Origin: an uncultured virus (IMG/VR IMGVR_UViG_3300048836_000452)
Lineage: Duplodnaviria; Heunggongvirae; Uroviricota; Caudoviricetes
Strand: one strand, 5' to 3'
DNA: 64,000 nt
Virus record (IMG/VR): IMGVR_UViG_3300048836_000452
This document shows, piece after piece, positions 22,301 to 40,263 of this stretch; within the stretch, counting starts at the first letter, position 1, and every line of letters begins with the position of its first letter. Made by a program: the position numbers and the translations under genes. The notes below the pieces were generated by a model. The model was not told where the DNA came from, made no database searches, and saw nothing but the letters and a program-made list of their open reading frames with translations.

Positions 22301-22370
22301 GGGTGTCTCCTTTGCATGATCCGATGGGGACCCCGCGCGAAAACCCCGCCCCTGGCGGGGCGGGTGGGGG

Positions 22371-22778
22371 TCAGACAAGGCCGAGCTTGAACGTGGTGTT
22401 GCGAATACTGATCGCGAACATCTTGGGCGTCACGCCCAGCTCCTTGGCGGTCTGCAGCAGGCTGTCGATGTCGCTGAGGTCGATCGTATCGACGCCATCG
22501 TCACCGCCGTAGTAGCTCTGCTTGGCATCCCACCAGCCATCCGGATCCTTGTCCGGATTGCACTCCTCGGCATAGACGGCGCGGGAGGCTTCGGGGGCGG
22601 CGCCAGGCTGGTGTTGATGCGGCTTGCCATTCGACATCAGGTAGATGCCGTGGTCGCCGACGAGCCAGAGGCCCGGGCCCGTCGCTGGGCCGGCGTAGGT
22701 CTCTCCCCATTCGGTGCAGGACCGGGCGTGGTCCATCAGGGGTTTTATCTCCTCGAGGGAGAAGTGGATGGTGGGCAT
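22371..22778 (-). CDS. DUF3085-like protein
   Basis: LWLVGDHGIYLMSNG...VYAEECNP...YGGDDG. Confidence 0.75.
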   Translation of the reverse strand: MPTIHFSLEEIKPLMDHARSCTEWGETYAGPATGPGLWLVGDHGIYLMSNGKPHQHQPGAAPEASRAVYAEECNPDKDPDGWWDAKQSYYGGDDGVDTIDLSDIDSLLQTAKELGVTPKMFAISIRNTTFKLGLV

Positions 22779-22842
22779 GGGTATCTCCTTTGTGGTGTCC
22801 CGAAGGGGACCCCGCCGAAAACGAGTGCCGTTTGGTCCGTTT

Positions 22843-22937
22843 GAGTGCCGTAAAAACGGCACCTGCCTATATTCCCGCGTATACGCGTGCGCGCATACAT
22901 GCGAGAAAGGTCGGTAAGGGACGTTTTAACGTCACTC
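22843..22937. repeat. 95-bp origin-like element, copy A (inverted relative to 39713-39807)
   Basis: GTGCCGTAAAAACGGCAC palindrome, alternating purine/pyrimidine core, CGTTTTAACGTCACTC. Confidence 0.75.
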
Positions 22938-22968
22938 GAAAAAGCCGCCCCCGAAGGGGCGGGGTCGT

Positions 22969-23376
22969 TCAATCACACCGTGCGACGACGAAGCTGTCGT
23001 CTTTCTGGATGATGCCGACGTATTCGCAGTCGAAGATAACGATGATCTCGTCGCGCAGGTGCGCGCGGATCAGTTCCTCGAGCGGCGGGTCGGCCGGGTC
23101 ACCGTCCTCGTCGGGCTCGCCAGAGCCATACTGGATGGCGTAGCGGCCGTCAGCGAGGCGCTGGAGGGTGAAACCGGTCTGCGGGTGGTAGCCGCAGCCA
23201 GCGGTGTTCTTGTAGCCGCTGTCGGCCTGCTCCTGGGCAGGGCGATCGTCGGCGATGTTGAACCACTTGGGCAGCATGCCCAGGTGGTCGACCATCGCGT
23301 TGGCGTTGGTCATCTGCCAGGCGATCCCTTGGCTTCCGTAGATCGAGTGGGGCTCGACTTGGGTCGGGTCGTTCAT
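22969..23376 (-). CDS. Early hypothetical protein
   Basis: Promoter-RBS-ORF-terminator cassette. Confidence 0.7.
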   Translation of the reverse strand: MNDPTQVEPHSIYGSQGIAWQMTNANAMVDHLGMLPKWFNIADDRPAQEQADSGYKNTAGCGYHPQTGFTLQRLADGRYAIQYGSGEPDEDGDPADPPLEELIRAHLRDEIIVIFDCEYVGIIQKDDSFVVARCD

Positions 23377-23499
23377 GTCGGGTCTCCTTCTGTTGGTCCC
23401 GGTGGGGACCCCGCAAAGAGCCCCACCCCTTGCGGGATGGGGGTGTCCAGGCGAACATGACGGGCTGCTAAGCGGTCATGTCGGGCCTGGTCTTGCGGG

Positions 23500-23664
23500 T
23501 CATTCCCGCGCCGCGTCACCCGCTTTACGCAGGTGTTCCTTCAGGCGACGGATTTCACTCCGTGCCTGACGAAGGTTGCTAGCTGTGCTCCCTTCTCGGC
23601 GCGCGGATGCTTCCAGTCTGTCGAGCAGACCTTGTTCCCGCGTTTCTTGATGACGTTGTGACAT
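23500..23664 (-). CDS. Early coiled-coil protein
   Basis: AAGGAG RBS, 54 aa. Confidence 0.5.
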   Translation of the reverse strand: MSQRHQETREQGLLDRLEASARREGSTASNLRQARSEIRRLKEHLRKAGDAARE

Positions 23665-23743
23665 CACCAGTCTCCTTGAGGCTTGGTAGTCAGGAGCAGG
23701 TGCCTCTTTACCTGGTCTCCGATGGGGACCCCGCAAGTTGGGG

Positions 23744-24148
23744 TCAGGCGGCCTGGGTGAGGCCGTGGCGCACGACATGGGCCACGCCGGGCCAGTTCTG
23801 CGCGATGGCAGCTTCGGCGATGGCGTCGATGTTGTTCTTGACGAACTTGGCCCACTGCATGCCGTGCTGGTCGTTGCGGCGCTTCTGCTCTTGCAGGAGC
23901 ATGCGGCGCCCCCGGTCGTCCCCGACGGTGCGGGTGACGGTGGCGTATCCGCTCTCGCTCTTGTCCCGGGTGACGGGCCAGAAGCTGAGGTAGATGCCGC
24001 GGCGGTTCTCGGTCCCGGTCCAGTAGTTGTGGCCGCCGAGGGTGTAGTAGACCTCGACCTCCATCTCCTCGAGGCGGACCTTGCCGGTCACCGGGTCGGT
24101 CGTCTCGCGCATGGGGACGTGGGTCTTGAAGTAGCGATCGTTGGACAT
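23744..24148 (-). CDS. Early hypothetical protein
   Basis: AAAGGA RBS after promoter 24176. Confidence 0.7.
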   Translation of the reverse strand: MSNDRYFKTHVPMRETTDPVTGKVRLEEMEVEVYYTLGGHNYWTGTENRRGIYLSFWPVTRDKSESGYATVTRTVGDDRGRRMLLQEQKRRNDQHGMQWAKFVKNNIDAIAEAAIAQNWPGVAHVVRHGLTQAA

Positions 24149-24211
24149 GGGTGTTCCTTTCGGTTGGTTCCCGAAGGGGACCCCGCGCAAAATGGACAAA
24201 ATGGCCCGCCC

Positions 24212-24433
24212 CTATCGGGGGCGGGGGTAGGGGTCCTTGCTCCAGTCTTCAACGCGCTGGGCGAGGAACTTCATGGCCTCCGCATCGAAGCGGTTGCCGT
24301 CGTAGATCAGCCAGATGGCGCGGGCGATGTGCCCGCGCTTGGCCAGGTCCACGACCATCTCGGCCGTCCGGTCCAGCTCGCGCTCCTTGGAGCCGTAGCG
24401 GTGGATGGCCTTCGGGTCGTAGGGCGTGCTCAT
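24212..24433 (-). CDS. Early hypothetical protein
   Basis: ATGA coupled to upstream gene. Confidence 0.55.
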   Translation of the reverse strand: MSTPYDPKAIHRYGSKERELDRTAEMVVDLAKRGHIARAIWLIYDGNRFDAEAMKFLAQRVEDWSKDPYPRPR

Positions 24434-24600
24434 GACGTCGAGAGCGCTGAGATCGCGACGAGCGCGATGATGACCACGCCACCACAGAGGAGCAGGAAGG
24501 GGATTGCCCATCCTGCGGCGGTGAGTTTCTTGTGGTCGGCATGGCCGTACTTGTCCATCTCGGGCCGGTAGCCGGAGTAGGGATCGTCAGGGTCGAACAT
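24430..24600 (-). CDS. Early small membrane protein
   Basis: AAGGAG RBS; C-terminal TM. Confidence 0.6.
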   Translation of the reverse strand: MFDPDDPYSGYRPEMDKYGHADHKKLTAAGWAIPFLLLCGGVVIIALVAISALSTS

Positions 24601-24653
24601 GGTTGTCTCCTTGTGTTGTTCCCAATGGGGACCCCGCGCAAAGAGCCTGCCCC

Positions 24654-24998
24654 TCACGGGGCAGGCAGGTCGCGCGTGACGGCCTCGCGCAGGGCAAGCA
24701 GCACGTCACCATCCTTGAAGTAGGGCTTGTGGTTGACGTAGCGGTCGCCCTGGGCATAGGCGGTCTGGATCCCGCAGCCGAGGCGGAAGTCCGTGATCCT
24801 CCAGAGGTGCAGGCCATCCGGCCTGCTGAAGGACCGGTGCCACCCGTCGTTCGTTGTGTGATCGACGGTCAGGCCCAGCTCGAGGACGGCGGCATTGAAC
24901 CGCGATCGGGGGCTGGTGTGGTCCGGGCGGGTGCTTGGTGCGCCGCCGCAGGTGCGGCAGCGCCCGTCGGAGCCGACGATGTAGTCGTGGTCAATCAT
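24654..24998 (-). CDS. Early hypothetical protein
   Basis: CRTC motif; GGAG RBS. Confidence 0.55.
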   Translation of the reverse strand: MIDHDYIVGSDGRCRTCGGAPSTRPDHTSPRSRFNAAVLELGLTVDHTTNDGWHRSFSRPDGLHLWRITDFRLGCGIQTAYAQGDRYVNHKPYFKDGDVLLALREAVTRDLPAP

Positions 24999-25126
24999 CG
25001 TCGCGCTCCCATCCGATCTTCGGGCGGCAGCCCAGCTTGAGGTAGGTCCAGAAGGGGATGCGCCACCAGAGGCGGCCGACATACCCTTCCCACGCGGTGG
25101 CGCCCTTAAAGGCATTCATCCGCATC

Positions 25127-25384
25127 TCAGCACCCCGCCCACATGTCGCGGAATTTCGCTTTCCGGATAGCCCGGGCGCGCTTCGCGTAGTATTGGCGGT
25201 CGCCGATCGCGAGGGGTCGCTCCATGTGTAGGCTCTGCAGGGCATGGTAGGTCCGGTGAGGATCGAGATCCTGCCGGCGTGCCCCCCTGTGTGGCGAGAC
25301 GACGACGCCATGGGTGCTTTGCGATCCACGGTGTCGGTTAACCCTGGCGTAGCGCCAGGCCCACTTCCACTCGCTGCGGGTCAT
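25127..25384 (-). CDS. Early basic hypothetical protein
   Basis: Coupled ORF. Confidence 0.5.
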   Translation of the reverse strand: MTRSEWKWAWRYARVNRHRGSQSTHGVVVSPHRGARRQDLDPHRTYHALQSLHMERPLAIGDRQYYAKRARAIRKAKFRDMWAGC

Positions 25385-25563
25385 CGGGTGCCGACCAGGT
25401 TCTCGAGGGTCTCTCGAATGAGCTGGCGGAGCGACACTTCCTTGGTGGCGGCCAGGTCGTAGAGGCGACGGTAGGTGTCGCTGTCTACGCTGGTTTGCAC
25501 GATGCGCTCCATGCGGCCGCCGGGTGGGTTGGCCCGGAGGGTGCGGCGATGGTCATGCGGCAT
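25381..25563 (-). CDS. CopG-like ribbon-helix-helix protein
   Basis: IVQTSVDSDTYRRLYDLAATKEVSLRQLIRETL. Confidence 0.6.
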   Translation of the reverse strand: MPHDHRRTLRANPPGGRMERIVQTSVDSDTYRRLYDLAATKEVSLRQLIRETLENLVGTR

Positions 25564-25795
25564 AGGCGGCCCCCGTCTCTTTGATGGGGCTGACGGTGGT
25601 TTGGTGCACGGTTTTGACCGTGGTTCTCATGCCGGTAATCTCGCAGTAGGCGCGAGCAAGTTGCTCGTCGGTGTGGCCGCGATATTCATCAATGAAGTCT
25701 CCTTCACGGATGTCGATGACAAGCCCGCCAGGGGTTTCAAGCTGCACCGTGCGGGTCTTGTCGACGGTGGGCGGGCTGAAGGTTTTGGTGGCCAT
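25553..25795 (-). CDS. Early hypothetical protein
   Basis: AAAGGAG RBS after promoter 25822. Confidence 0.6.
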   Translation of the reverse strand: MATKTFSPPTVDKTRTVQLETPGGLVIDIREGDFIDEYRGHTDEQLARAYCEITGMRTTVKTVHQTTVSPIKETGAAYAA

Positions 25796-26064
25796 GATGG
25801 GTCTCCTTTCATGTGTCCTGCGGGGACCCCGCGGCGCGCGCAAGTAGCTATCGTGATTAGTGTAAACTGAAAAAAGCCACCCCCGAAGGGGTGGTGGTCA
25901 GATGGCCCATCGGCCACGGACCTGCAGGACGCGGAGAGCGAACTCTTCCGGGTTGTCCTTGTGGTCATCGAACGCTGTCAGGATGTGATGCAGCGTGTCG
26001 GCTGCAAGCTTCAGATCCCGCGCTGTCATGGCGTCCTTCACGAACGGGAGTTTGATAGGTTCTC

Positions 26065-26265
26065 TCACTTCCCCCTCCGTTCCAGTTCGGCCTCGATGGC
26101 CTTGACGATGACGGCGGACGCGAAGGCATTGAGGCCTCGATGGTTCTCGAGGTCCTCCTTCAGGCCGCGCGTGTCGCGCCGGGTCATGCCGAGGGCACGG
26201 GTTGCGGACGCGATGTCGTCGTCGGTGATGGGCCGGTAATCTGCCGGCCTTCGTTGTTCGATCAT
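26065..26265 (-). CDS. Early hypothetical protein
   Basis: AAGGAG RBS after promoter 26287. Confidence 0.55.
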   Translation of the reverse strand: MIEQRRPADYRPITDDDIASATRALGMTRRDTRGLKEDLENHRGLNAFASAVIVKAIEAELERRGK

Positions 26266-26332
26266 GGCAGTGATCTCCTTTCCGGTGGGGACCCCGCGAA
26301 AAGGTCCGGCCCCCGAAGGGACCGGTCCGTTG

Positions 26333-27232
26333 TCAGGCAGCCAGAAGCTGGTCGAACTCCTGCGAGCGCAAGGCCCGCGCCACCCGGTCGTCGCGCCCGG
26401 TGCGGGCGGTGACGACACCGGACCCCTGGCGAACCTCGCCGTGGGTGGCCCAGTTGGTCATGGCATTTAACATCCCCCAGACGGTCTGGTCCTCGTTCTT
26501 GAAGCGGTTGAGGATGTCCAGGACCAGGGGCTCCGAGAAGTTCTCGTCGCCGTTGGCCTTGAGGGGCAGCTTGGCCAGGGTGGCCTTGAGGAAGTCCTCG
26601 GCCTTGTCGACCGAGAGCTTCGTGGATGCATAGAGACCGAAGCGTTCGCCATCGTTCTCCATCATGTCGGCGGCGGTGATGATCGACCGCTTGAGGGCGT
26701 CGATCGAGAAGTTCGAGGTATGCTTCCCGTAGGTGGAGGCGCTGAACTTCTCGTTCACCATGCCGTTCATGCAGACCAGCCGGAAGTATCCGGCCGACGA
26801 TTTCACGGCATAGGTTCCGTCATGGCTGTTGAGCGCGGTGAAGCGGCGCAACAGGATGTCGTTCCCGAGGCCTTTGGGGGTGGTGAAGTCACCGACCACG
26901 ATGTCGGAGCGCATGATGGCTCCGTTGGCCTGCAGACCGGTGCTGATGAAGGCGCCCCGCTGCCCCTTCAGGTCGTAGAAGTCACGCTGAGAGGGGGTGC
27001 GGTTGGTCCGTTCCACGATCTCGTAGCCCTGGTCATGCAGGGTCTGGAGCATCGGGTCGAGCACGTCCTGGTGCTGGACGGGCTTGAAGTTCTGGCCGCA
27101 GATGGCCAGCAGGCTGTCGTCGTCGGTCCGGTAGACACCGCGCCCGATGGTCGGGTCGATCTCCTTGCCGTTGTGGTCGAAGATCGGTTTCACGACCGCC
27201 GACCAGTTGGTCACAGGGCTGTCAAAGGGCAT
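26333..27232 (-). CDS. DUF932-family protein
   Basis: LNSHDGT...FRLVCMNGM...TVWGMLNAMTNWATH. Confidence 0.8.
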   Translation of the reverse strand: MPFDSPVTNWSAVVKPIFDHNGKEIDPTIGRGVYRTDDDSLLAICGQNFKPVQHQDVLDPMLQTLHDQGYEIVERTNRTPSQRDFYDLKGQRGAFISTGLQANGAIMRSDIVVGDFTTPKGLGNDILLRRFTALNSHDGTYAVKSSAGYFRLVCMNGMVNEKFSASTYGKHTSNFSIDALKRSIITAADMMENDGERFGLYASTKLSVDKAEDFLKATLAKLPLKANGDENFSEPLVLDILNRFKNEDQTVWGMLNAMTNWATHGEVRQGSGVVTARTGRDDRVARALRSQEFDQLLAA

Positions 27233-27340
27233 GTGTTGTCTCCTTCATGCTTTGGGGTCAGTCCCGAAGGGGACCCCGCGAGAGGATGCTCCACAATCTG
27301 AACGGGGAAAAGCACCGCCCCCGAAGGGACGGTGCGAGGG

Positions 27341-27706
27341 TCAGGCTGCTTCTACCGGTTCTTCCGGGTAGATGCCTTTCCATGTGCTGAGGGCGTTCGG
27401 CCCTTTGGCCTGCGACGGCACGTAGTTGTGCAGGACGTAGGCATAGTCAAAGAGCAGCCGCTGGTTCTCGTCGTCGGCGCAGGCCGCGGCTTCAAAGAGA
27501 TCGCCGCGGATGATGGCCTGCAGGAAGCTGCCCGGCACGATGCCGAACAGGACCCACCGGACGATGCCGCCATGCATGCGCGATGGCAGCTTCCAGAGGC
27601 CTTGCCCCCAGGCGTAATTGCCGGAGAGCTCGCCATAGGCGGCGGCTTCGACGCCGGTTTCGGCGAGGAGCCTGTAGCGGGCGACGGCTTCTGCACGGGT
27701 CATCAT
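27341..27706 (-). CDS. Early hypothetical protein
   Basis: PGSFLQAII.GDLFEAA..AD..N pattern. Confidence 0.6.
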   Translation of the reverse strand: MMTRAEAVARYRLLAETGVEAAAYGELSGNYAWGQGLWKLPSRMHGGIVRWVLFGIVPGSFLQAIIRGDLFEAAACADDENQRLLFDYAYVLHNYVPSQAKGPNALSTWKGIYPEEPVEAA

Positions 27707-28362
27707 GCGTCCACCTCCAGGGCTTCGACGTCCTTCATGTCGACCGCCAGGAACTCGGTCATGGTGCCGGTCCAGAGAGCCGAGCAGCCGTAGTAGACCG
27801 AGCCGTCCGAGTGTCGTTTGGCCTTGTCTTTCTGCCCCTTCACTTCGGAAGGGGACAGCCGGGCATGGGCCCACTGCTTGTCTTCGTGGTTGTTGAAGCC
27901 GCGCAGGATGATGACCTTGCGGTCATCGAGGTCGAAGATGTAGCCCCATTCGCAGAACAGGCTGTCCTTGATGAAGGCGGTGTCTTCGGTGGCAATGCCA
28001 GAGCGAAGGCGCTTCATCAGGCTTCCCTGCTGCTCGCGCAGTTGGGAATACCAGTCGTCTCCGGTGGAGACGTTGCTGTTCAGGAACTGGCTGTACTTTT
28101 CGGCCTGTTCCTCCGTGGGGTGCTTGTCCGCGTCGACATAGGTCATGTTGCCGACGAGCGGGGCGAGATAGTCGAAGAGGCTTTCGGGGTTTTCGTGATC
28201 CAGAAAGCTGAGGGCGGTCTGGTCGTGTTCGACCAGGTCCAGCGTTTCCCTCATCTCCTTCTGCAGCTCGACCCCCGTTGAGGTGGGGTAGGTGTCGAAC
28301 TGCTGGTAGCTGGCGTGCAGCACCTTGTCGTGCAAGGTGCCGATCACTCCTCTGGTTCCCAT
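27703..28362 (-). CDS. Early hypothetical protein
   Basis: MGTRG...YQQFDTYP...DSLFCEWGYIFDLD. Confidence 0.7.
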   Translation of the reverse strand: MGTRGVIGTLHDKVLHASYQQFDTYPTSTGVELQKEMRETLDLVEHDQTALSFLDHENPESLFDYLAPLVGNMTYVDADKHPTEEQAEKYSQFLNSNVSTGDDWYSQLREQQGSLMKRLRSGIATEDTAFIKDSLFCEWGYIFDLDDRKVIILRGFNNHEDKQWAHARLSPSEVKGQKDKAKRHSDGSVYYGCSALWTGTMTEFLAVDMKDVEALEVDA

Positions 28363-28461
28363 GATGTATCTCCTTCATTGGGGTTTCCCGTGGGGACCCC
28401 GCGCGAAATAGACCGGACCTGAAGGTCCGATCCCACAGCAAAAGACCGCCCCGAAGGGCGG

Positions 28462-28800
28462 TCAGAGGTCAAGGTCGATCCGGCAGACCTGCTGGACTGC
28501 CAGGGGTAGGCTCGACCACTTGGCCTGGAACTTGCGGTTCCTTTCCCGGAACGTTTTCACGTCCGAGATGACCATCTCGCGGGGCGCCCCCGGGCCGTTC
28601 TCACGGTCGAAGGGGTCCTCGCCACACGACCTGTAGCCATAGAACTTGTTCTGCCAGGTCGTCCCGTAAAGCGGGTAGCGGTAGAAGATGGTGTAGCGGT
28701 TGGGGGTCTCTCCCCCGTTGTCGTACATAGCCAGGATACCGCTGGGGCACCCGCCTTCCCGGTAGAGGGGGTGGCAGGGCTTGAGGGTGGGGCCGGTCAT
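28462..28800 (-). CDS. Early hypothetical protein
   Basis: YDNGGET..RYTI motif; coupled. Confidence 0.6.
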   Translation of the reverse strand: MTGPTLKPCHPLYREGGCPSGILAMYDNGGETPNRYTIFYRYPLYGTTWQNKFYGYRSCGEDPFDRENGPGAPREMVISDVKTFRERNRKFQAKWSSLPLAVQQVCRIDLDL

Positions 28801-29057
28801 TTCTTGTTCGCCTTCCGCGCCAGATCGGTGATCAGTGCATCCATGCGGCTGAGCGCAAGGGTGAGCGGGATCATGCTGTCGAGGTCGGCGGTCCGGTTAC
28901 GCGGATCCGTGTGCTGGTAGTTCCGCCCGTGCAGGACATGGCTATGCATGACCTTCAGGGCGTCGGCAGTCCGGTCCCGGGCGATCTGCAGCGCCATGGC
29001 GGCGGTGGCGAAATCGCGCGGCTCGTTGCCGTTGAGTTGGGGTTCAGCGTAGAGCAT
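28797..29057 (-). CDS. Early hypothetical protein
   Basis: RBS after promoter 29084; HGRNYQ. Confidence 0.6.
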   Translation of the reverse strand: MLYAEPQLNGNEPRDFATAAMALQIARDRTADALKVMHSHVLHGRNYQHTDPRNRTADLDSMIPLTLALSRMDALITDLARKANKK

Positions 29058-29146
29058 GGGTGTCTCCTTTCATGTCTCCCTACGGGGACCCCGCGCGATA
29101 GGGAGACGACAGCCGGAAAAAGCCGCCCCCGAAGGGGCGGCGGTCG

Positions 29147-29596
29147 TCACCAGCTGGACGTGTAGATCACGGTCCAGCCGCGGGCGATTTCCTCCTTGGC
29201 CCGCTTGATGAACTCAAGCGTGCGAGGCTTGTCGCTTTCGTCACTGGTGCCGAAGAAGAAGCCGGTGGTGTGCGGCAGCTCGTCGGCCAGAGTAAGCTTC
29301 TCAAGCTCCTCGATGTCGGGGAGGTCGAGAACCACGTTGCCGTGGAAGCTGTCCATGGAGATTTCGGTCCCGCCCTTGCGGCGATAGATCGCGTCGATCG
29401 CGCCGTGCAGGTTGGGGTGCTTGCGCCAGTAGGCCAGCGCCTTGAAGCCCGGCTTGCAGACGAAGAGCGATCCAAAGATCGGATCGTCGAAGAAGCAGTC
29501 CGGGTAGTGCAGGTCGGTGACCATATCGGCTTCCTCGAAGTCGACATCGGTCGCGGGGCGTGTTTCGCGCGCCCAGGCGTATTGGTCCAATCCCAT
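29147..29596 (-). CDS. Early conserved phage protein (MGLDQY...YWRKH...YTSSW family)
   Basis: Family-typical termini and YWRKHPNLHG. Confidence 0.7.
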   Translation of the reverse strand: MGLDQYAWARETRPATDVDFEEADMVTDLHYPDCFFDDPIFGSLFVCKPGFKALAYWRKHPNLHGAIDAIYRRKGGTEISMDSFHGNVVLDLPDIEELEKLTLADELPHTTGFFFGTSDESDKPRTLEFIKRAKEEIARGWTVIYTSSW

Positions 29597-29661
29597 CAGG
29601 TCTCTCCTTTGGTTGGGTGTTCCCGTGGGGACCCCGCGAAAAGAGAGGGCGCTTGCGCGCC

Positions 29662-30288
29662 CTACTCCCGTAGCCATTCCTGCATGCAGGTCTCTCCAAG
29701 GGTGTAGATGCCGATGCGGCTCTCGCCGTCATCGACCAGAGCATAGGCAGCGCCTTGCTCCATCGCGGCCGCCACGAACTCGATGTCGTCGAGTTCGCTT
29801 TCATGGGCGACCTGGATCATCCGGCCCTTTTCGAGGCCGTGGTTGATCTCCTTCCAGTCGATCCAGACGCCCAGCTCATAGGCTGCGTCGTCGTTCGGAT
29901 CGTCCGAGGCCCACCCATAGGTCATGAAGAGTGGGACCTCCTTGTTGAGTTGGTTGAGCAGATCCGAGACGTAGCGATAGATCGCCAGGTTCTCGGCATC
30001 GTACTCCCCGTCCAGCACGTTCATTTCCTCCTCGTCATTGACGGGGAAGCTCATGTCCAGGTGGCTCGAGGTCTTCACATAGGCAAGCATGGCATCCGCG
30101 ACGAGGAGCCATTCGGCGAGACTGTCGTAGTCGAAGCCGCCTTCAATGGCCTTGTCGTGGACGAATTGCATGTCCATGCGGATGGCGTTGAGGATCTCGC
30201 TGGGCCGCCGCTCGCCGTTGCCGTTCAGGCGCAGGCCGGGTGGCAGTGCATCGAGATCATCGTAGTCGTAATCGGGTCCATCATACAT
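29662..30288 (-). CDS. Highly acidic early protein
   Basis: About one residue in five is Asp/Glu (manual count). Confidence 0.65.
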   Translation of the reverse strand: MYDGPDYDYDDLDALPPGLRLNGNGERRPSEILNAIRMDMQFVHDKAIEGGFDYDSLAEWLLVADAMLAYVKTSSHLDMSFPVNDEEEMNVLDGEYDAENLAIYRYVSDLLNQLNKEVPLFMTYGWASDDPNDDAAYELGVWIDWKEINHGLEKGRMIQVAHESELDDIEFVAAAMEQGAAYALVDDGESRIGIYTLGETCMQEWLRE

Positions 30289-32470: not shown

Positions 32471-32571
32471 GTGGGTTCTCCTTTGCATGGGTCCGGTGGG
32501 GACCCCGCGCGAGAGGGCCGGGCCCGAAGGTCCAGCCCCACAGCAAAAGGCCGCCCCCGAAGGGGCGGCGA

Positions 32572-32778
32572 TCAGTTCGGTTTCGGCAATGGCCCCTGCG
32601 GGGCCAAGGCGAGCTTGAGCATGGTGCCAGGCGGCACCAGCACAGCCATGGTGACCTCCACGTCGAACTCATCGCGACCGTCCTCAACGTCCTCGACGGT
32701 CAGGTCGAGAACGAGGCTGGGGTCTGAGGTTCGGTGTTGGGTCACCAGGAGGGTGATGAGGCTGATGTAGAGCTTCAT
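32572..32778 (-). CDS. Early hypothetical protein
   Basis: 68-aa ORF downstream of 32781 gene. Confidence 0.45.
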   Translation of the reverse strand: MKLYISLITLLVTQHRTSDPSLVLDLTVEDVEDGRDEFDVEVTMAVLVPPGTMLKLALAPQGPLPKPN

Positions 32779-32780
32779 CG

Positions 32781-33182
32781 TCAGCCCGGCTTGTAGAGGC
32801 CGGACTTGTCCAGCACGTCCCGGAGGACGTGGTTCGCTTCATAGAAGTCCAGCTTGTAACAGCCGGCGGGCGCCCCGGGCTTTGTGGCCCAGAGCCGCCG
32901 CATCCCGTGCCGGTCGATCGACTTGGTGGCGAGACGAAGGCGGATTTCGCGCTTCATGGTCTCGACCACCTGGTTGTCGTCGGTGTCCAGCCGGTAATGC
33001 ATGGGCTTCTTCCAGCCCTCCTGCGGGAGGAGGTCCGGGTGCTTCTTCACGAGCCGGTCCATTCGTGCCGGGCCTTCCTTGCGGCCGCGGCAGAACTCGA
33101 TGTAGGCGATCGGTTCGCGCTCCCAAGGTCTCTTGGGGTTGGCGATGCCGTCGTGAAAAGCCAGATATGCGTAGTAGGTCAT
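32781..33182 (-). CDS. Early hypothetical protein
   Basis: ATG 33182 after promoter 33215. Confidence 0.6.
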   Translation of the reverse strand: MTYYAYLAFHDGIANPKRPWEREPIAYIEFCRGRKEGPARMDRLVKKHPDLLPQEGWKKPMHYRLDTDDNQVVETMKREIRLRLATKSIDRHGMRRLWATKPGAPAGCYKLDFYEANHVLRDVLDKSGLYKPG

Positions 33183-33283
33183 GATCTGGGGGTCCTTTCT
33201 CTGGTTGTCCCTATGGGGACCCCGCGCCGGCGGATCAGGATCAGCGAAAAGCCGCCCCCGAAGGGGCAGCGGAAGACCGGTCG

Positions 33284-33499
33284 TCAGAGGTCTATCCTTA
33301 TGCGGCTCGTGTGATGGCTGATGATGGTGGCCACATCGGAGCGGGGGATGGTGTAGGTGCTCTGCACCGCGAGATCGAAAGCTTGCCCTTTGGGCTGCAG
33401 CTTTTCCTTCATGCGGAGCAGGTCCTCCAACCCTCTCTCGTTCAGTATGCTCAGTCGCACCAGCGATCGGGTTGAGGTCGCGTGGATGATGATGTCCAT
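33284..33499 (-). CDS. Early hypothetical protein
   Basis: AAGGAG RBS after promoter 33518. Confidence 0.6.
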   Translation of the reverse strand: MDIIIHATSTRSLVRLSILNERGLEDLLRMKEKLQPKGQAFDLAVQSTYTIPRSDVATIISHHTSRIRIDL

Positions 33500-33602
33500 T
33501 TGGGTCTCCTTTCCTATGGGGACCCCGCGCCAAGAAAAGACCAGGCGCGAAGCGCCAGGTCACACAGAGCAAATGGACCGACCCCGAAGGGCCGGCCAGG
33601 AG

Positions 33603-33791
33603 TTACCGATGCGGCGTGCGTGCTTTCTGCTGATGCCGGTCCCGGATCATCTCCAGGATCTCGGCTACCTCGTCGATGCCATCCAGGCCTCTTCCGGACC
33701 TCAGGATCGCAGCCGCCCGTTGTCGCAAGTCCGCAGTTGAGAGATGCTGAATGTCCTGCATCTCAGTTTGGCGGATGTAGCTCGTGAGCAT
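33603..33791 (-). CDS. Early hypothetical protein
   Basis: GAGGAG RBS; DIQHLST shared with the 30724 ORF (DIQHMST). Confidence 0.55.
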   Translation of the reverse strand: MLTSYIRQTEMQDIQHLSTADLRQRAAAILRSGRGLDGIDEVAEILEMIRDRHQQKARTPHR

Positions 33792-33840
33792 GTGCTCTCC
33801 TCTCTTGCGCTTGGGGTTACTCCCAACGGGGACCCCGCGC

Positions 33841-34175
33841 AAAAAAACGATGGTCATTGTCCTACCATCCCGACAGCACCTTTTCAGTACTGCCGTTCCC
33901 CGGGTTTTGCACCCCGGGAATAGCTTCTGTCTGCTACACGTTTTCTGCTTACGCACAGGTGTCTCTCCTGCTTTGTGCTCACCATGGCTCTCGCTTTAGG
34001 TTGCACGCGTCTTCGTCCAGATTAATCAGGTTCCCCAAGCGGCTATTCTCTCGGGCATCGTCCTGAAGCCGTGTTTCCACGTTCCGGCGCTGCGGGCTCA
34101 CGCGGCCCCATTTACGGGCCGCTTTACTGATGCAGGGTTCTTCCACTTACCCACCAGGGGCAGTTCGGTTGTTCC
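33841..34175 (-). ncRNA. Candidate structured ncRNA (~330 nt)
   Basis: From promoter 34179 to a hairpin + T tract at ~33841-33870; several hairpins; no ORF with a convincing RBS. Confidence 0.45.
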
Positions 34176-34226
34176 TATGGGGACCCCGCGAAAAGAACCG
34201 CCCCCCGAAGGGGGCGGGGGTCTTGG

Positions 34227-35132
34227 TCACAAGATCGCGGTTGCGAAACTCCAGAGGTATGGCATTACCATCCACCCAAGCAGGGCATAGTCCACGATCG
34301 TCAGGACGATCAGCACGGGTGCGAGCACCGCTGCGATCCGAGGGACTGTGAGTACGGCAAGGAAGCCGACGATGGCTGTCAAGAGCCACGGCGCGAACTT
34401 CATCAGGACAGATTTCACGATCGCCAATATGGTCCGCTCAGGGAGCGTGACAACCTTGTCGACGGCCTCGAAACCTCGCACGAGTGCAGGTGTCGGGCTT
34501 GCCTTTGGGGTTGGAGCAGAGTTCGTGTTCGCCGGCGCAGTCCGAGCTACCTCAGCCACCTCGAAAGGTGTCATCAGTTTCGGGCCGTGCAGGGTCACAG
34601 GACGATCGGCCATGAGGGCCTTCTCATCGGCTGTCCGCATGGATACTGCTTTCTCGGCATTCTTCTGAATGCGGGTGCAGCGCTCTGTGCGATCGGGCGC
34701 GTTGAATATCTCGTCTGATGTGTGCGTGATCCCGTTTGGCGGCAGATACTTTCCTTCACGGAAGTAGCTGACGTGGGTCAGGCGCTCAACGAATTCTGCT
34801 TCACCCCGGGTCAAGCCGGTGATGAGGCAACGATTGTCTTTCGTCAAACCCAAGTTTGGATTTTTCGCAATGACAACGTTATTTCTGTCTATGAATGAAC
34901 CTTCAAACGCCGAGCCAATCTTGGCTTCGCGTCCGTCGTTTCCATATGCGTACACAAGTCCGGTCGGGTCGAGCGAGCGCGCTCCTTCGCGGCTGTCGAT
35001 CAGATCGTAGGCCCATTGCTTCAGCTCGATGTCTGATAGATTGGCCAGTTCCGGCAAAGCTTGCGCGGATACTTGTGATCCAAGAACCACCGCCACAATG
35101 GCGAGCAGTCCTCGTCGGATTTCCCTAAGCAT
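34227..35132 (-). CDS. Exported/membrane protein, lower-GC insert
   Basis: N-terminal signal/TM, two C-terminal TM segments, more AT-rich than neighbours. Confidence 0.7.
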   Translation of the reverse strand: MLREIRRGLLAIVAVVLGSQVSAQALPELANLSDIELKQWAYDLIDSREGARSLDPTGLVYAYGNDGREAKIGSAFEGSFIDRNNVVIAKNPNLGLTKDNRCLITGLTRGEAEFVERLTHVSYFREGKYLPPNGITHTSDEIFNAPDRTERCTRIQKNAEKAVSMRTADEKALMADRPVTLHGPKLMTPFEVAEVARTAPANTNSAPTPKASPTPALVRGFEAVDKVVTLPERTILAIVKSVLMKFAPWLLTAIVGFLAVLTVPRIAAVLAPVLIVLTIVDYALLGWMVMPYLWSFATAIL

Positions 35133-35185
35133 TTAATTTTTCCTTTCATGTCAAGGGGTTATTCCTATGGGAACCCCGTGACGCG

Positions 35186-35359
35186 AAAAAAAGTCTTTCA
35201 CTCCCTAGCGATAGGTCGTGTCGTCCTTTTAGAACCTCTGTCGAATTCCGCATGTGCTCGCGTGGTCTCAAGCGCCGGGTCAGGGCGCGATCTTCACGGA
35301 TCGTATGTGGCGGTGCCCTCGCCTTATGACAGGGGCATATCCGGTTTACGGTTCTTTCC
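35186..35359 (-). ncRNA. Candidate structured ncRNA (~170 nt)
   Basis: From promoter 35363 to T tract at ~35186; AGAACC/GGTTCT closing stem, internal hairpins. Confidence 0.45.
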
Positions 35360-35387
35360 TATGGGGACCCCGTGAAATTGAAGGGGC

Positions 35388-35538
35388 AAAAAAACGATGC
35401 CTTGCGGCATGTTCCTGGCCTAGATCCTGTTTCAGTCTGTCTCCAGGTGAACCTGGTCGGACCTATATCAGACCCGCCCTCCTTGCAGAGGGCTACCAAG
35501 CGATGTCTTGCGACATGCCGGGCGAGGCCGTGTATTCC
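35388..35538 (-). ncRNA. Candidate multibranch ncRNA (~150 nt)
   Basis: From promoter 35542; GGCCT/AGGCC closing stem enclosing four hairpins (two GCAA loops), then GCAA terminator hairpin + T7 tract. Confidence 0.55.
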
Positions 35539-35768
35539 TATGGGGACCCCGTGACTTCCTCCGGCAGGCCAGCACTGGCCCCGGCCATGTCGGTGATCCA
35601 TTCAGCCACCCAGCCCTCCGCCAGCTGCATCTGCTCATAGACGAGGAGCGTCAGGATGTATTTCTCCTGGAACGGGGTCAGCCCAAGACCAGGCAGGGCG
35701 TCAGCCGTTGCCTGGATGGCAGCCTCAAGTGCGGGGATCAGCTCCTCGCCGGCTGTCACCTCAGTCAA
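35538..35768 (-). CDS. Hypothetical protein
   Basis: 76-aa ORF ending in promoter 35542. Confidence 0.45.
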   Translation of the reverse strand: MTEVTAGEELIPALEAAIQATADALPGLGLTPFQEKYILTLLVYEQMQLAEGWVAEWITDMAGASAGLPEEVTGSP

Positions 35769-36252
35769 GGTGAAGCCTCCTCTGGCTTAGCAGGTCCTTC
35801 CTCACCCGCACGGCAGCGCAGAAATGCACGCGCTTCTTCAGGTGAACGCGATTGTTCGTTGTGACCTTCACGCGCCACGTAAACCCCTGAGCGTAGCGAT
35901 GATCGGGGATCGGCCAGATGTGATACCCCGGCATGTTTTGCTTGTTCTCGGCATTTGTTGCCTCTCTCAGGTTGGCCCATCGGTTGTTGGACTTGTCCCT
36001 GTCCTCGTGGTCGAGAAGGTGAGGCCAGCGCCCCTCCATCAGTGCGAAGGCAAGGCGATGCGCTTTGACGCGGAGCGTCCGGGTCAAGGCAACGACCACA
36101 TATCCCTTCCTGGACAGCGCGGTGCAGGGACCGCGTGGCCCTGTGATGACGCCAGTTTCAGGATCGTAGCTGAACCGCGCCCGCAGCCAGTCGATCGGTG
36201 GCAGCTCGTGCTTGCGTAATTCGGCGCGAAATGGTTCGGTCGGGATGTTCAT
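35761..36252 (-). CDS. HNH homing endonuclease
   Basis: YDPETG...AHRLAF...LDHEDRDKSNNRWANLREAT. Confidence 0.85.
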   Translation of the reverse strand: MNIPTEPFRAELRKHELPPIDWLRARFSYDPETGVITGPRGPCTALSRKGYVVVALTRTLRVKAHRLAFALMEGRWPHLLDHEDRDKSNNRWANLREATNAENKQNMPGYHIWPIPDHRYAQGFTWRVKVTTNNRVHLKKRVHFCAAVRVRKDLLSQRRLHLD

Positions 36253-36692: not shown

Positions 36693-37229
36693 ATGCCTCA
36701 CTATAGAGTGGCGACACAAGTCGCGCAACGCCGTAATTGCAAGGTTGACAAGCCGAAGCGCCCGATCCGTATTGAGGGCGACATCGCTTTCATCCCCCTG
36801 ACCAAAGGGCATGAGGCCATCATCGACGCTGCAGATGTGCCGCTGGTGGAGGGGCGAAGATGGTCAATGTCTGGCCCGGGCTATGCTCAGTGGAAGGGCG
36901 GCGTTTATCTGCATCGGATGATCCTTGGCCTTGAAGCCGGAGACGGTCGGTTTGCGGACCACATCAATGGCAACAAGCTGGACTGCCGAAGGGCAAACCT
37001 CAGGGCCGCCACAATGGCGCAAAACGTCCAGAACCGGCCGGCCCGCAGCGATAATTCTTCCGGCATCAAGGGGGTTTCCTTTGATCGCAGCAGGGGGCTG
37101 TGGACGGCGGAGGTGAAGAGCGGCCGGGTGCGGATCAGGTGCGGACGCTTCGCAAGCAAAGAGGCGGCAGCAGATGCCGTCAGGGCCGCTCGCGAGGTCC
37201 TGCATGGGGAGTTCTGCAACCATGGCTGA
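36693..37229 (+). CDS. HNH-AP2 homing endonuclease
   Basis: YLHRMIL...ADHINGNKLDCRRANLR; NSSGIKGVSF...W.AEV AP2 domain. Confidence 0.85.
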   Translation: MPHYRVATQVAQRRNCKVDKPKRPIRIEGDIAFIPLTKGHEAIIDAADVPLVEGRRWSMSGPGYAQWKGGVYLHRMILGLEAGDGRFADHINGNKLDCRRANLRAATMAQNVQNRPARSDNSSGIKGVSFDRSRGLWTAEVKSGRVRIRCGRFASKEAAADAVRAAREVLHGEFCNHG

Positions 37230-38124: not shown

Positions 38125-39664
38125 CGAACGGGGGCCGCGGCGACCGACAATCCTGCCGATGAGTGATCCGAACGTGGCCGAAGCGGCAGAGCGCGCCGCC
38201 GTCGAACCCTTGCAGACCCGCGTCGGCCGCCATTGGGCACAGGAGAATGCCGATGCCTTCTGCTACGATCACGAAGGCGAACGCTGGATGCGGTGGGATG
38301 GGTCGAGGTGGGAGGATGAACGGACCGGGGCCGCGCTCGACAGCATGGTCAATTTCGTCGAAGCCCTTCGGGTAAGAGATCCCCGCGGCTACAAGGGCGC
38401 CGCCAACCTCAGTTTCATCAAGTCCGCACTCTCGATCGCCGCCGCCTCCCGCCTCATGGCCCGCAAGACAGACGATTTCGATGCCGACCCGTTCCTCCTC
38501 GGTGTGCCAGGCGGACAGGTGAACCTGCTCACAGGTGAGATCGAGGACCCGCGCCAGACGTCCATGATCTCCAAACAGGTCATCGTCCGCCCCGAGAAGG
38601 GCGAATGTCCAAAGTGGATCGCCTTCCTCAGGCAGGCCCACGAAGGGCAGGAAGAGGTGGTCGACTGGCTGCAAAAGTTCTGCGCCGAAATCCTCCTGGG
38701 CAAACAGACCGATCACCACTTCGCGTTCTTCTACGGCGACGGTGGCAACGGCAAGTCGCAATTCCTCGAGACCATTCGCGAGCTGATGGGGGACTATGCC
38801 GAAGAGGCGCAGGAAGGCACGTTTACCCGCCCTGAAAAGGGAGGATACCACGGCCACACCCACGTCCTCGCCCGCCTGCGTGGCAAGCGCCTGGTCACCG
38901 TCTCGGAGCCGGGCGTGGGCGATGTCTGGGATCTGGGTCGCATCAAGGCATGGGCCGGCGGAAATATCATCAGCGCCAACCGCATGCGGCAGGAGAGCGT
39001 TCCCTTCAAGCCCGTGGGCATGCTGGTCTGCACCGCCAACCACCAGTTGAAGGTCGAGAGCGTCGATAACGCCGTCGCCCGCCGCCTCAAGTATCTGGTC
39101 TGGCCGCACAAGTTTCACGGCGATGGCTACGAGCACCTGACCGTGACAGACCTCGGAGCGAAGATCATGGCTGAGGAAGGGCCGCAAATCCTCTGGTGGA
39201 TGATCCAGGGCGTGCCGCGCCTTCTTGAGGAAGGGCTGGGGGCCGCTGACGTGATGAAGGTGGCAGGCAAGGCCTATCTGCGCGAGCAGGACACCATGCA
39301 GCGGTTCATCGACGAAACCTTCGTGGCCGATGAGCAGGTGCAGCCAGGCGTCAACCTGCGTGATGCGGTCACGATCTACAACGAATGGGCGCGGATCAAC
39401 GAAGCCCCGGCCCTCAAGCGTATCGGAGAACTCCTCACGAAGAAGGGCCTCACCATCTCGAAGACCAACACCGAGCGGTTCGTCCGCAAGCAGTCCCTCT
39501 CCGCAGAAGGCATGACCCTCATGTCGAACGCCCTCATGGCGCGGATCAGGGCCAAGGAACTGACGAAAGCCGAAGCCGCGCGATGGTCGCCCACCCTGTC
39601 AGAATGGAAGCTCGCCGGCGAAGATGGGGCTTACCTCGATGATCTGCTTGGGGTTGAAAAATGA
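38117..39664 (+). CDS. P4-family primase-associated D5-like SF3 helicase
   Basis: WMRWDGSRW D5-N motif; YGDGGNGKS Walker A; LARLRGKRLVTVSE; CTANH. Confidence 0.9.
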   Translation: MTDERGPRRPTILPMSDPNVAEAAERAAVEPLQTRVGRHWAQENADAFCYDHEGERWMRWDGSRWEDERTGAALDSMVNFVEALRVRDPRGYKGAANLSFIKSALSIAAASRLMARKTDDFDADPFLLGVPGGQVNLLTGEIEDPRQTSMISKQVIVRPEKGECPKWIAFLRQAHEGQEEVVDWLQKFCAEILLGKQTDHHFAFFYGDGGNGKSQFLETIRELMGDYAEEAQEGTFTRPEKGGYHGHTHVLARLRGKRLVTVSEPGVGDVWDLGRIKAWAGGNIISANRMRQESVPFKPVGMLVCTANHQLKVESVDNAVARRLKYLVWPHKFHGDGYEHLTVTDLGAKIMAEEGPQILWWMIQGVPRLLEEGLGAADVMKVAGKAYLREQDTMQRFIDETFVADEQVQPGVNLRDAVTIYNEWARINEAPALKRIGELLTKKGLTISKTNTERFVRKQSLSAEGMTLMSNALMARIRAKELTKAEAARWSPTLSEWKLAGEDGAYLDDLLGVEK

Positions 39665-39712
39665 GGGTTGGAGTGACGATATTACAACCGGCGGTAGCCC
39701 TAAGGTTTAAGT

Positions 39713-39807
39713 GAGTGCCGTTAAAACGGCCCTCCCCCCTTTTCACGCACATACGCGTACGCGCGCATATGCGGAGAACGTAGGCAAGTGCCGTTTTAAC
39801 GGCACCC
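39713..39807. repeat. 95-bp origin-like element, copy B
   Basis: GAGTGCCGTTAAAACGGC ... CGCACATACGCGTACGCGCGCATATGCG ... GTGCCGTTTTAACGGCAC, directly after the helicase stop. Confidence 0.75.
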
Positions 39808-39902
39808 ATATAAAAGCACTCAACCATAGAGAAATGGCCGCAACCTTAAGTTGACCGCGAAAAAAGGAGCGCCCGCGTGATGCGGACGCTGCCATTCTGC
39901 GG

Positions 39903-40091
39903 TCACTTGGCTTTCAAGCGACGGAACTGTCTGTTGGACAGGCGCGACACGCGGCGCTTTCCGACCTCGTTCCCGCCTGCGAAGGCGGCGATGGTCATGA
40001 GCACGGCGATGCCGAGCGCGATCCAGGTCAGGTTGGCTCCGACGAAGGTCGTCAGGTCACTGAGCAGGGTGGCGTTAAGCGTGGGTTCCAT
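39903..40091 (-). CDS. Small membrane protein
   Basis: GAGGAG RBS after promoter 40133; one TM. Confidence 0.6.
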   Translation of the reverse strand: MEPTLNATLLSDLTTFVGANLTWIALGIAVLMTIAAFAGGNEVGKRRVSRLSNRQFRRLKAK

Positions 40092-40126
40092 GTGGAACGC
40101 TCCTCTTGTGTCAGAAGCGGATTGCT

Positions 40127-40263
40127 TCCTATGGGGACCCCGTAACCTGTTGATAAAAGCTAATGATTGGTAAAACTATATTGCGCCGCAGCGCGGCGGA
40201 GCCGCGCCAGCCTGAGTAGCTTGCGTGATTAGTGTAAACTGACGTGGCGGGGTCCCCACAGGA
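40127..40263. promoter_or_regulatory. Back-to-back pair of phage-RNAP-type promoters
   Basis: Leftward core at 40133-40141 (N3=ATA); rightward core GGGGTCCCC at 40249-40257 followed by ACAGGA. Confidence 0.8.

Follow-up and report, generated by a model that had tools for sequence, protein, structure and literature searches.

A 28-site array of candidate T7-type promoters and a T7-type RNA polymerase domain in a giant polyvalent protein of an uncultured caudovirus

To our knowledge, the N4 family comprises the only well-studied virion-packaged single-subunit RNA polymerases (RNAPs), and it uses unusual hairpin promoters. Here we describe an array of 28 promoter-like sites that occurs together with a single-subunit RNAP domain of another type in an uncultured caudovirus (IMG/VR record IMGVR_UViG_3300048836_000452). 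The window, which is the whole stretch of DNA that was analysed, is 64,000 nucleotides (nt) long and represents about 64 kb of a phage genome of ~69 kb. It is collinear with the IMG/VR contig G001 at roughly 70-90% nt identity; G001 is 69,145 bp long with a 42-bp end overlap and is read as a circular assembly. The 28 sites are probably duplex T7-type early promoters of the RNAP embedded in a 2747-aa protein, and this enzyme is probably delivered with the virion. What was observed directly is how often, where and in which orientation the motif occurs and how well it is conserved, what kind of enzyme the RNAP domain is, and that array and RNAP occur together; from this we infer that the enzyme binds the 28 sites.

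Against the 28 sites of the window, the two reports on N4 and LUZ7 (PMC4496689, PMC9163698) give 3 promoters for N4 and 9 early start sites for LUZ7. The N4 early promoters are described there as a 5-7-bp stem with a 3-nt loop centred at -11 (PMC4496689), and those of LUZ7 as a stem of at least 4 bp with a G start 13-14 nt past its centre (PMC9163698). Like N4 gp50, the single-subunit RNAP studied here lies inside a giant protein encoded among virion genes and the promoter-like sites are limited to early genes; a genome of ~70 kb and GC-rich promoters with a G start are further likenesses (PMC4496689, PMC9163698). The proteins themselves are different. N4 gp50 matches PF21894, PF21769, PF21867 and PF21624, none of which is matched by the window protein, while the window protein matches PF00940 and PF18857 (LPD38), neither of which is matched by N4 gp50. 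A BLASTP comparison of the two proteins gave a best E-value of 0.17, and no genes for an RNAPII of the gp15/gp16 type were found in the window. Judged by these profile and sequence comparisons, the embedded enzyme is outside the N4 virion RNAP (vRNAP) family.

The second described system is T7 RNAP with its 17 promoters (Autographiviridae). It shares with the present locus the full-length enzyme fold, the catalytic motifs, a promoter block of similar size, the succession of A-T-A (at 11 of the 28 sites) and G-G-R-A at the T7 positions -3 to +4 in the best profile register, and many copies per genome that often stand right before a Shine-Dalgarno (SD) sequence. Unlike T7 RNAP, which is a free early gene product, the enzyme in the window is a domain of a protein of the structural module. 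Its predicted recognition sequence is GC-rich and partly palindromic (CGGGGTCCCC), in contrast to the AT-rich upstream part plus GACTCACT of T7. Moreover, nearly every unit bears a terminator, and the promoters would serve early-type genes only, not middle or late ones. A third comparison concerns the carrier protein. The LPD38 polyvalent proteins of Iyer et al. (2017, PMC5512222) are likewise giant, multidomain and encoded beside packaging and structural genes, and the idea, set out in the accessible part of that paper, of injection followed by cutting into separate working units would also fit. The same part mentions virion RNAP modules only in N4-like phages, almost always fused to a zincin metallopeptidase; a T7-type module together with LPD38 and a JAB-like motif is a combination that it does not describe (PMC5512222). 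The kind of element is therefore known, and what is new is a non-N4, T7-type RNAP in an LPD38 polyvalent protein, a GC-rich and partly palindromic promoter, and ~28 insulated cassettes, some of them non-coding. A literature search found no description of such a system, and none of the full-text matches to the core string that were listed concerned phage promoters.

Exact copies of CGGGGTCCCCNNNGG occur 27 times in the 64-kb window, against 0.02 ± 0.14 in 100 dinucleotide-preserving shuffles, none of which reached 27. The 28th copy, at 35169, carries one core change (CGGGGTTCCC-ATA-GG). This count agrees with an earlier interpretation of the same DNA made from its letters alone (hereafter the sequence-only reading), which had given 28 copies, one with a single core mismatch. 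Four other one-mismatch matches were rejected as copies: three (25821, 29083 and 33827) are reverse readings where a G follows the core, and the fourth is an unrelated CGGGATCCCC at 15642. The dinucleotide GG is spaced exactly 3 nt 3' of the core CGGGGTCCCC in 28 of 28 sites, just as had been claimed for every copy. The conserved block extends over 19 nt (positions -2 to +17) and consists of C (20/28), G (22/28), the core, A (22), T (21), any nucleotide, GG, A (17) or G (11), and A (23). It is asymmetric, CGGGGT and GG being invariant and the "AT" after CCCC being variable. The form ending in CCCCATAGG(G/A), described by the sequence-only reading as the commonest, does hold this rank, but it is found at only 11 of the 28 sites.

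When both strands of the window were scanned with the 19-nt profile, the 28 sites scored 22.5-32.2 and all other positions 8 or less. This bimodality shows that the signal is all-or-none and limited to 22.3-40.3 kb; the absence of copies before middle and structural genes, noted in the sequence-only reading, was thus confirmed, no other position of the window scoring above 8. Twenty-seven sites are on the - strand (22326 to 35542, plus 40133, the variant at 35169 being included) and one is on the + strand (40248), which forms a divergent pair with 40133. All 28 face the unit downstream of them, in keeping with the orientation proposed earlier.

The profile of the 17 annotated T7 promoters was compared with that of the 28 sites at all offsets. 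The best register places the T7 +1 on core position 14, i.e. the first G of the GG. Its score was 10.52, compared with a column-shuffle maximum of 6.52 ± 0.83, and 1 of 1000 shuffles reached it. In this register the two consensuses agree at -11, -8, -7, -5, -3 to +2 and +4. The parallel with T7 drawn by the sequence-only reading, with +1 at the first G, is therefore also the best alignment, and on this register we infer the start of transcription to be at the first G of the GG. The promoters would then be ~19 bp long and would extend from about -15 to +4.

Leaders, SD sequences and terminators were counted with our own script under rough criteria (a hairpin with a folding free energy of ≤ -8 plus a run of T within 75 nt upstream). 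An SD sequence and the start codon of an open reading frame (ORF) of at least 53 aa follow 25 of the 28 sites. Counted from the first G, the leaders are mostly 15-38 nt long and at most 78 nt; the leader at 25822 measures 23 nt by eye. A hairpin with a T-run lies directly upstream of 23 of the 28 sites, which leaves no room for another promoter. At sites 33518 and 26287 the SD sequence begins 3 nt past the GG, which makes about this point the latest possible start of the RNA. Both units of the divergent pair end in terminators, and the + strand copy therefore does not drive the structural operon. In a separate scan of 21.5-41 kb, 36 terminator-like sites were detected, mostly on the - strand, against 14.7 in shuffles, while sigma-70-like promoters (-35/-10 hexamers with a spacing of 16-18 nt) numbered 3 in the same region against 3.2 ± 1.9 in shuffles, and none was at the motif.

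Three sites (35542, 35363 and 34179) have no ORF or ribosome-binding site (RBS) behind them and instead head stretches of 151, ~174 and 335 nt, respectively, that end in a T-run. The claim that most sites stand after a terminator and shortly before an RBS agrees with the 23 and 25 sites counted above, these three being exceptions in that they lack an RBS. The 335-nt and 151-nt units fold far better than their shuffles (z -3.36 and -4.17, respectively; 0 shuffles fold as well). An Rfam search over 33.7-35.7 kb gave no family even at E ≤ 1, a search at gathering score likewise gave none, and a tRNA search found none. In a relative of the window, the IMG/VR contig G003 (locus L031), four promoter-plus-terminator units without ORF stand in a row at 21871-22621; they are 174-203 nt long and mutually unrelated except for the promoter. 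The first non-coding unit is kept in the window, G001 and G003 at ~80%.

The 2747-aa protein is encoded at 51196-59439 (+) in the structural module and combines a JAB-like motif at aa 898-910 with the RNAP domain and, towards the C-terminus, a region containing LPD38. PF00940 matches aa 1433-1782 with 55.8 bits (cut-off 22), and LPD38 matches aa 2436-2592. In a phmmer search of PDB sequences, T7 RNAP chains were the only matches (E ~2e-11), covering the DxxGR region and motifs A, B and C. BLASTP against T7 RNAP gave E 3e-11 with ~24% identity over 408 aa and paired T7 D537, K631, Y639, H811 and D812 with D1434, K1531, Y1539, H1730 and D1731. These five residues and R1401 do not vary among 26 aligned homologues and are the predicted catalytic and template-binding residues.

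From a 24-row alignment, AlphaFold2 gave a model of aa 1054-1830 with a mean predicted local distance difference test (pLDDT) score of 85 and a predicted template modelling (pTM) score of 0.85. Foldseek ranked T7 RNAP first for this model (E 3e-18 to 1e-17, TM 0.50-0.55), followed by mitochondrial RNAPs. In structural alignments, model residues 31-749 were superposed on T7 RNAP 36-883 with Z 19.8-24.5, and yeast mitochondrial RNAP reached Z up to 24.7. The span of 36-883 means that the whole T7 architecture is present, the N-terminal domain included. A long beta-hairpin at model residues 580-635 occupies the position of the T7 specificity loop, and the T7 fold stops at F1802, which matches the end of T7 RNAP. 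According to the model, the embedded domain (aa ~1084-1802, 54445-56601, +) is a complete T7-type single-subunit RNAP fold with intact motifs, carrying R1401, D1434, K1531, Y1539, H1730 and D1731. The N4 mini-vRNAP was absent from the best 50 structural matches listed, which shows only that T7 and mitochondrial RNAPs rank higher. No second RNAP and no sigma factor were found among the 106 window ORFs scanned, and in the complete relative G001 PF00940 is matched once only and Sigma70_r2 not at all.

Homologues of this RNAP are rare. Among 1.84 billion representative proteins, 26 clusters were detected at E ≤ 1e-3 (22 at ≤ 1e-30), the strong matches being giant proteins of 1269-3881 aa, and tblastn of the RNAP core against 50,697 GenBank phage records found none. 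Such a small family with no GenBank phage match is essentially unexplored. Divergent members (P0004, P0005, P0011, P0013, P0015, P0020, P0025 and P0026) are encoded on long contigs of 41-68 kb. Even the nearest cultured phages, judged by portal and C-terminal module, show only 25-29% identity; these are Pelagibacter HTVC023P/027P, Roseobacter CRP-901/902, Planktothrix Pag-Yong1 and Caulobacter RW. The JAB-like motif (H-T-H-x6-S-x2-D) hardly varies across the family. The RNAP domain is bracketed by three copies of LRRAVD, which lie at aa 1049, 1826 and 1868, and the repeat occurs at matching places in the closer homologues P0002, P0003, P0005-P0007 and P0009; these repeats may be processing sites that release the polymerase.

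Relatives were sought in the 2.9 million contigs of IMG/VR, where the scans gave the lineage of G001, G002 and G003 plus short fragments; further scans for relatives of the RNAP gave 3 loci without early regions in metagenomes and none in genomes. Relatives of the phage were also traced to freshwater or wastewater samples, and among RNA runs with raw reads none was found to contain the phage. CGGGGTCCCCATAGG matches 24 stretches of IMG/VR and CGGGGTCCCCAYNGGRA matches 40. Multiple copies are found only in G001, G002 and G003, the single-copy contigs numbering 16 in the first scan and 28 in the second. G001 holds 16 copies of CGGGGTCCCCNNNGG, G002 holds 7 and G003 holds 8, and all three contigs encode an RNAP homologue, which is lacking in both single-copy contigs checked (n=2). 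Both computational checks proposed by the sequence-only reading, the genome-wide motif scan, with its all-or-none sites in the early block only, and the co-occurrence of motif and RNAP, thus gave what was predicted, and its proposal of a T7-type promoter of the embedded RNAP is judged to be supported. GGGGTCCCC is absent from contigs G006 and G007, both of which stop short of the early region. Repeated 10-mers in G006, the most divergent contig, were considered as promoters and rejected, because they are collagen-like coding repeats of a fibre gene.

Thirteen window sites have an orthologous site in G001, a relative of ~75-85% identity, assigned by the downstream gene, and core plus GG are identical in 13 of 13. 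Ungapped identity in these pairs is 87% over the 19-nt block but falls to 34% over the 18 nt on its upstream side and to 68% over the 18 nt on its downstream side. We count this conservation as an argument for selection on core plus GG. When 1-2 changes are allowed, G001 has 30 sites, of which 13 carry a G-to-T change at core position 3 and one more has a CCCT end. The T-type copies (loci L026-L027) lie within 11924-26780 and include the divergent pair; the window has none. They are concentrated in the upstream half of the G001 array, where 11 of the 13 sites at or above 19.5 kb are of this type, versus 2 of the 17 below (Fisher p = 1e-4). Such clustering would not arise by drift and is what a base-specific contact predicts. 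A comparable division exists in the window, where A-T-A precedes the GG at 11 of the 16 sites at or above 30.3 kb versus 0 of the 12 below (p = 2.5e-4). The window and G001 thus each hold two position-dependent promoter classes, which is reminiscent of the promoter classes of T7.

The RNAP gene stands in the late/structural module and the promoter-like sites stand before early-type genes, so the virion most likely carries the polymerase and ejects it along with the DNA. The position of the gene for the 2747-aa protein between structural genes and the terminase, and the domain architecture of this protein, whose LPD38-containing C-terminal region is common to phage virion or polyvalent proteins, point to such packaging and delivery. 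It would proceed as in N4 but would have evolved independently. Once inside the cell, the polymerase would transcribe ~28 short insulated units, each made of a promoter, 1-3 small genes or a structured non-coding RNA, and an intrinsic terminator. The motif-free genes would be transcribed by another enzyme, probably the host RNAP.

Several observations weigh against this proposal. At 17 of the 28 sites a G or C lies within -3 to -1, and -4 is always C, which is unlike the AT-rich melting region of T7. The RNAP domain of the window is only ~45% identical to those of G001 and G003 and is set apart from them by an indel of ~20-28 residues in the region of the specificity hairpin; even so, all three share one promoter core. 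Conversely, the G001 and G003 enzymes are 78% identical, but G001 mixes G-type and T-type cores while all 8 G003 sites are G-type. Promoter variants therefore do not simply track enzyme variants. The partial palindrome GGGGTCCCC (4+1+4) would likewise be a fitting target for a DNA-binding protein that acts as a dimer. Finally, T7 RNAP requires a free C-terminus, and since the fold ends at F1802 inside a longer polypeptide, processing would be needed.

Instead of the embedded RNAP, which would then have another role or other targets, the host RNAP might read the motif, helped either by an alternative sigma factor of the host or by a small phage factor that escaped recognition. The substring CCCCAT-A does resemble the sigma-32 heat-shock -10 element, most early ORFs are without a known family, which leaves room for a hidden factor, and one core serves enzymes that are 45% identical. 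We nevertheless regard this explanation as very unlikely. There is no conserved -35-like element, for the sequence more than 2 nt upstream of the core is unconserved and is occupied by unrelated terminators; what would be the -10 element is variable in its "AT", whereas CGGGGT and GG are not; and the SD sequences 3 nt after the GG at two sites are too close for a start 6-8 nt past a -10 element. A scan of bacterial and archaeal genomes gave at least 121 copies of the motif, all single and on different contigs as expected by chance, and no array and no host-like regulon was seen among the matches listed. No sigma domain was found in G001.

We think it very unlikely that the sites are N4-style hairpin promoters, in which the palindrome would be extruded from supercoiled DNA and read in single-stranded form by the virion RNAP with the host single-stranded DNA-binding protein. 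Transcription would then start 11-14 nt past the centre of the hairpin and no earlier than the A at core position 17. An RNAP inside a giant virion-type protein, as in N4, and a partly palindromic core (GGGG-T-CCCC) speak for this explanation, as do the early promoters of N4 and LUZ7, which are rich in GC, form hairpins with a loop of 3 nt and start with G (PMC4496689, PMC9163698). With a 3-nt loop, however, only 3 bp can pair here, or 4 bp at the 3 of 28 sites where a G follows the core, against 5-7 bp in N4 and at least 4 bp in LUZ7 as given in the same sources. Six strands that were folded gave -1 to -4.6 kcal/mol, and shuffles did just as well (z +1.5 to -1.3). The strongest conservation (GG-R-A) lies outside the palindrome, and the GG is 8-9 nt from its centre instead of 11-14. 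The enzyme is also of T7 type and has no N4 vRNAP Pfam match.

The partly palindromic core would also allow the motif to be an operator at which a phage DNA-binding protein switches the early units off or on, the promoter being elsewhere or the site having a dual role; the sequence-only reading had itself raised this caveat. Genes for a helix-turn-helix (HTH_3, 30375-30632) and a ribbon-helix-helix (RHH, 13486-13647) protein are indeed present. An operator is nonetheless a poor explanation and, in our view, highly improbable: conservation is asymmetric, orientation is strict in 28 of 28 sites, the invariant GG-R-A falls outside the palindrome, no second conserved element that could be the promoter exists between terminator and SD sequence, and for an operator bound by a dimer a palindrome of 9 bp is short. 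The sites may still act both as promoter and as shut-off site.

Between relatives, whole cassettes differ, the window having 28 sites and G001 30, with 13 pairs clearly orthologous, and the sequence upstream of orthologous cores is unrelated between the two. Whole cassettes are missing from contigs of related phages (runs X15, X18 and X19; 85-99% alike), several of the joints falling at cores or right beside them (33846 to 34159, which removes the 335-nt unit, 26304 to 33510, 24188 to 28440 and 32211 to 32543). That the motif is primarily an integron-like recombination or cassette-boundary site, at which promoter-gene-terminator cassettes are swapped, is hardly credible all the same, as no integrase or recombinase was found among the window ORFs scanned, the fixed position and orientation before the SD sequence and the T7-like GG-R-A would be left unexplained, and recombination between 28 identical repeats of 17-19 nt is the expected by-product of a promoter array. 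The promoter repeats may act as recombination joints. Mosaicism of the giant gene and of the genome is evident from sequence comparison: the part of the giant gene at 53349-56265 (aa ~718-1690, most of the RNAP domain) has ~45% aa identity to G001, against 70-90% nt identity elsewhere, and G003 combines window-like tail genes (95-97% nt) with a G001-like RNAP.

Beyond the reading of the sites as early promoters of the embedded RNAP, a wider joint reading is offered tentatively, as a possibility that we hold to be less than even. The window would represent a second, independently evolved lineage of virion-delivered RNAPs, of T7 type and carried in an LPD38 polyvalent protein. The polymerase, perhaps released by cutting at the LRRAVD repeats, would read a duplex, GC-rich promoter of 19 bp without host factors. 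It would drive an immediate-early programme of ~28 insulated single-unit cassettes that is opened by several structured non-coding RNAs. Two promoter classes, distinguished by ATA or a GC-containing sequence at -3 to -1 in the window and by T or G at core position 3 in G001, would set timing or strength, and the promoter repeats would double as joints for cassette swaps between phages. If a T7-type enzyme is truly delivered in the virion and uses an ordinary duplex promoter, this infection strategy arose more than once. The enzyme and its sites would also constitute a compact (~750 aa) candidate orthogonal RNAP/promoter pair, with a GC-rich promoter unlike the T7, T3 and SP6 signals, and the density of promoter, gene and terminator, together with promoter-driven structured RNAs, would make the locus ready material for studies of early takeover.

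Positions of the 28 promoter-like sites in the window, with the profile score of each in brackets. The only + strand copy, ggCGGGGTCCCCACAGGAA at 40246-40264 (27.6), heads ORF 40286-40447 (53 aa), followed by a hairpin and a T-run. Its divergent partner at 40126-40144 (29.5), on the - strand like all those that follow, precedes ORF 39903-40091 (62 aa) and a terminator-like site at 39890-39868. The leftward array begins with 35535-35553 (30.9), which overlaps the 3' end of ORF 35538-35768 and heads the 151-nt non-coding unit (35538 to 35388). It continues with 35356-35374 (30.9), head of the ~174-nt unit without ORF or RBS (35359 to ~35186), with the sole core variant at 35162-35180 (27.1), which precedes ORF 34227-35132 (301 aa, lower-GC stretch), and with 34172-34190 (32.2), head of the 335-nt structured non-coding unit (34175 to 33841). 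The sites at 33821-33839 (25.4) and 33511-33529 (32.2) precede ORFs 33603-33791 (62 aa) and 33284-33499 (71 aa), the latter with its SD sequence 3 nt after the GG. ORFs 32781-33182 and 32572-32778 follow 33208-33226 (30.8), and ORF 32198-32470 (90 aa) follows 32491-32509 (24.6). The site at 32195-32213 (24.3) is without an upstream terminator, being at the end of a coding region, and precedes ORF 31819-32175 (118 aa); that at 31733-31751 (27.7) has a long leader and an uncertain downstream ORF (31485-31682).

Single ORFs stand behind 31431-31449 (30.8; 31104-31415, 103 aa), 31036-31054 (30.8; 30724-31011, 95 aa), 30654-30672 (26.3; 30375-30632, 85 aa, HTH_3), 30315-30333 (30.4; 29662-30288, 208 aa) and 29620-29638 (26.3; 29147-29596, 149 aa). 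Two ORFs each stand behind 29077-29095 (27.2; 28797-29057 and 28462-28800) and 28385-28403 (26.3; 27703-28362, 219 aa, and 27341-27706). Downstream of these are 27262-27280 (26.3) with ORF 26333-27232 (299 aa, DUF932), 26280-26298 (28.2) with ORF 26065-26265 (66 aa) and again an SD sequence 3 nt after the GG, 25815-25833 (22.5) with ORF 25553-25795 and small ORFs down to ~24654, 24620-24638 (29.0) with ORFs 24430-24600 and 24212-24358, and 24169-24187 (26.3) with ORF 23744-24148 (134 aa). The site at 23717-23735 (24.0) is without an upstream terminator and has a 53-nt leader before an ORF with a GTG start. The array ends with 23397-23415 (25.3; ORF 22969-23376, 135 aa), 22798-22816 (24.1; ORF 22371-22778, 135 aa, DUF3085) and, as its last member, 22319-22337 (26.2), which precedes ORF 21830-22300 (156 aa) and then a terminator-like site at 21824-21807.

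Two of these sites share a further sequence. An exact 18-nt repeat is present at 25852-25869 and 40224-40241 (+), 2 copies against 0.01 expected, each just upstream of a promoter copy and with similar flanks over ~30 nt. Part of it is a TGTAAACT stretch, possibly an extended -10 element directed to the right. The copy at 25.9 kb would face a possible + strand ORF at 25988-26239, with a terminator-like site at 26230-26250. The 301-aa product of ORF 34227-35132 (-), under the sole variant promoter, has no family match and lies in the lowest-GC stretch of the window (0.577 at 34-36 kb); its N-terminus looks hydrophobic, so the phage may have acquired it as a membrane or secreted protein.

Among GenBank phages, Megablast gave no match to 22-42 kb. 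The genes read rightward from 40.3 to 64 kb, and onward through 1-9.5 kb, have structural and lysis roles; among their products are a virion protein, a tail fibre, a VanY peptidase, a 1020-aa protein, the 2747-aa protein, terminase, portal, adaptor and endolysin. The leftward genes from 36.5 to 9.5 kb are small and mostly of unrecognised family, and include those for an SNF2-type helicase and Pam3 gp33/gp34-like proteins. Genes for PrimPol and a D5-type helicase are read rightward at 37.2-39.7 kb. The motif is missing from the leftward block at 9.5-22.3 kb, from the primase/helicase genes and from the structural genes. In the motif-free intergenic stretches 13648-13788, 16474-16617 and 21743-21829 (-), pairs of sigma-70-like hexamers were noted by eye, for example TTGACG-N17-TATATG near 13.7 kb and TTGACA near 21.78 kb; they are candidate host-RNAP promoters of middle genes.

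The motif-free block also holds anti-defence genes, with a Tad2-like domain (E 5e-27) at 15347-15574 (-) and an Acb2/Tad1 hairpin domain (E 3e-14) at 14523-14657 (-). The large terminase appears to be split into overlapping + strand ORFs in different frames, 59436-60386 (316 aa), which matches the ATPase part, and 60334-61098 (254 aa); this could reflect a frameshift, a sequencing error or two genes. Three genes for HNH-type endonucleases, one of which also has an AP2 domain, are found at 35761-36252 (-), 36693-37229 (+) and 21515-21742 (-), placed around the start of the early array and the replication genes.

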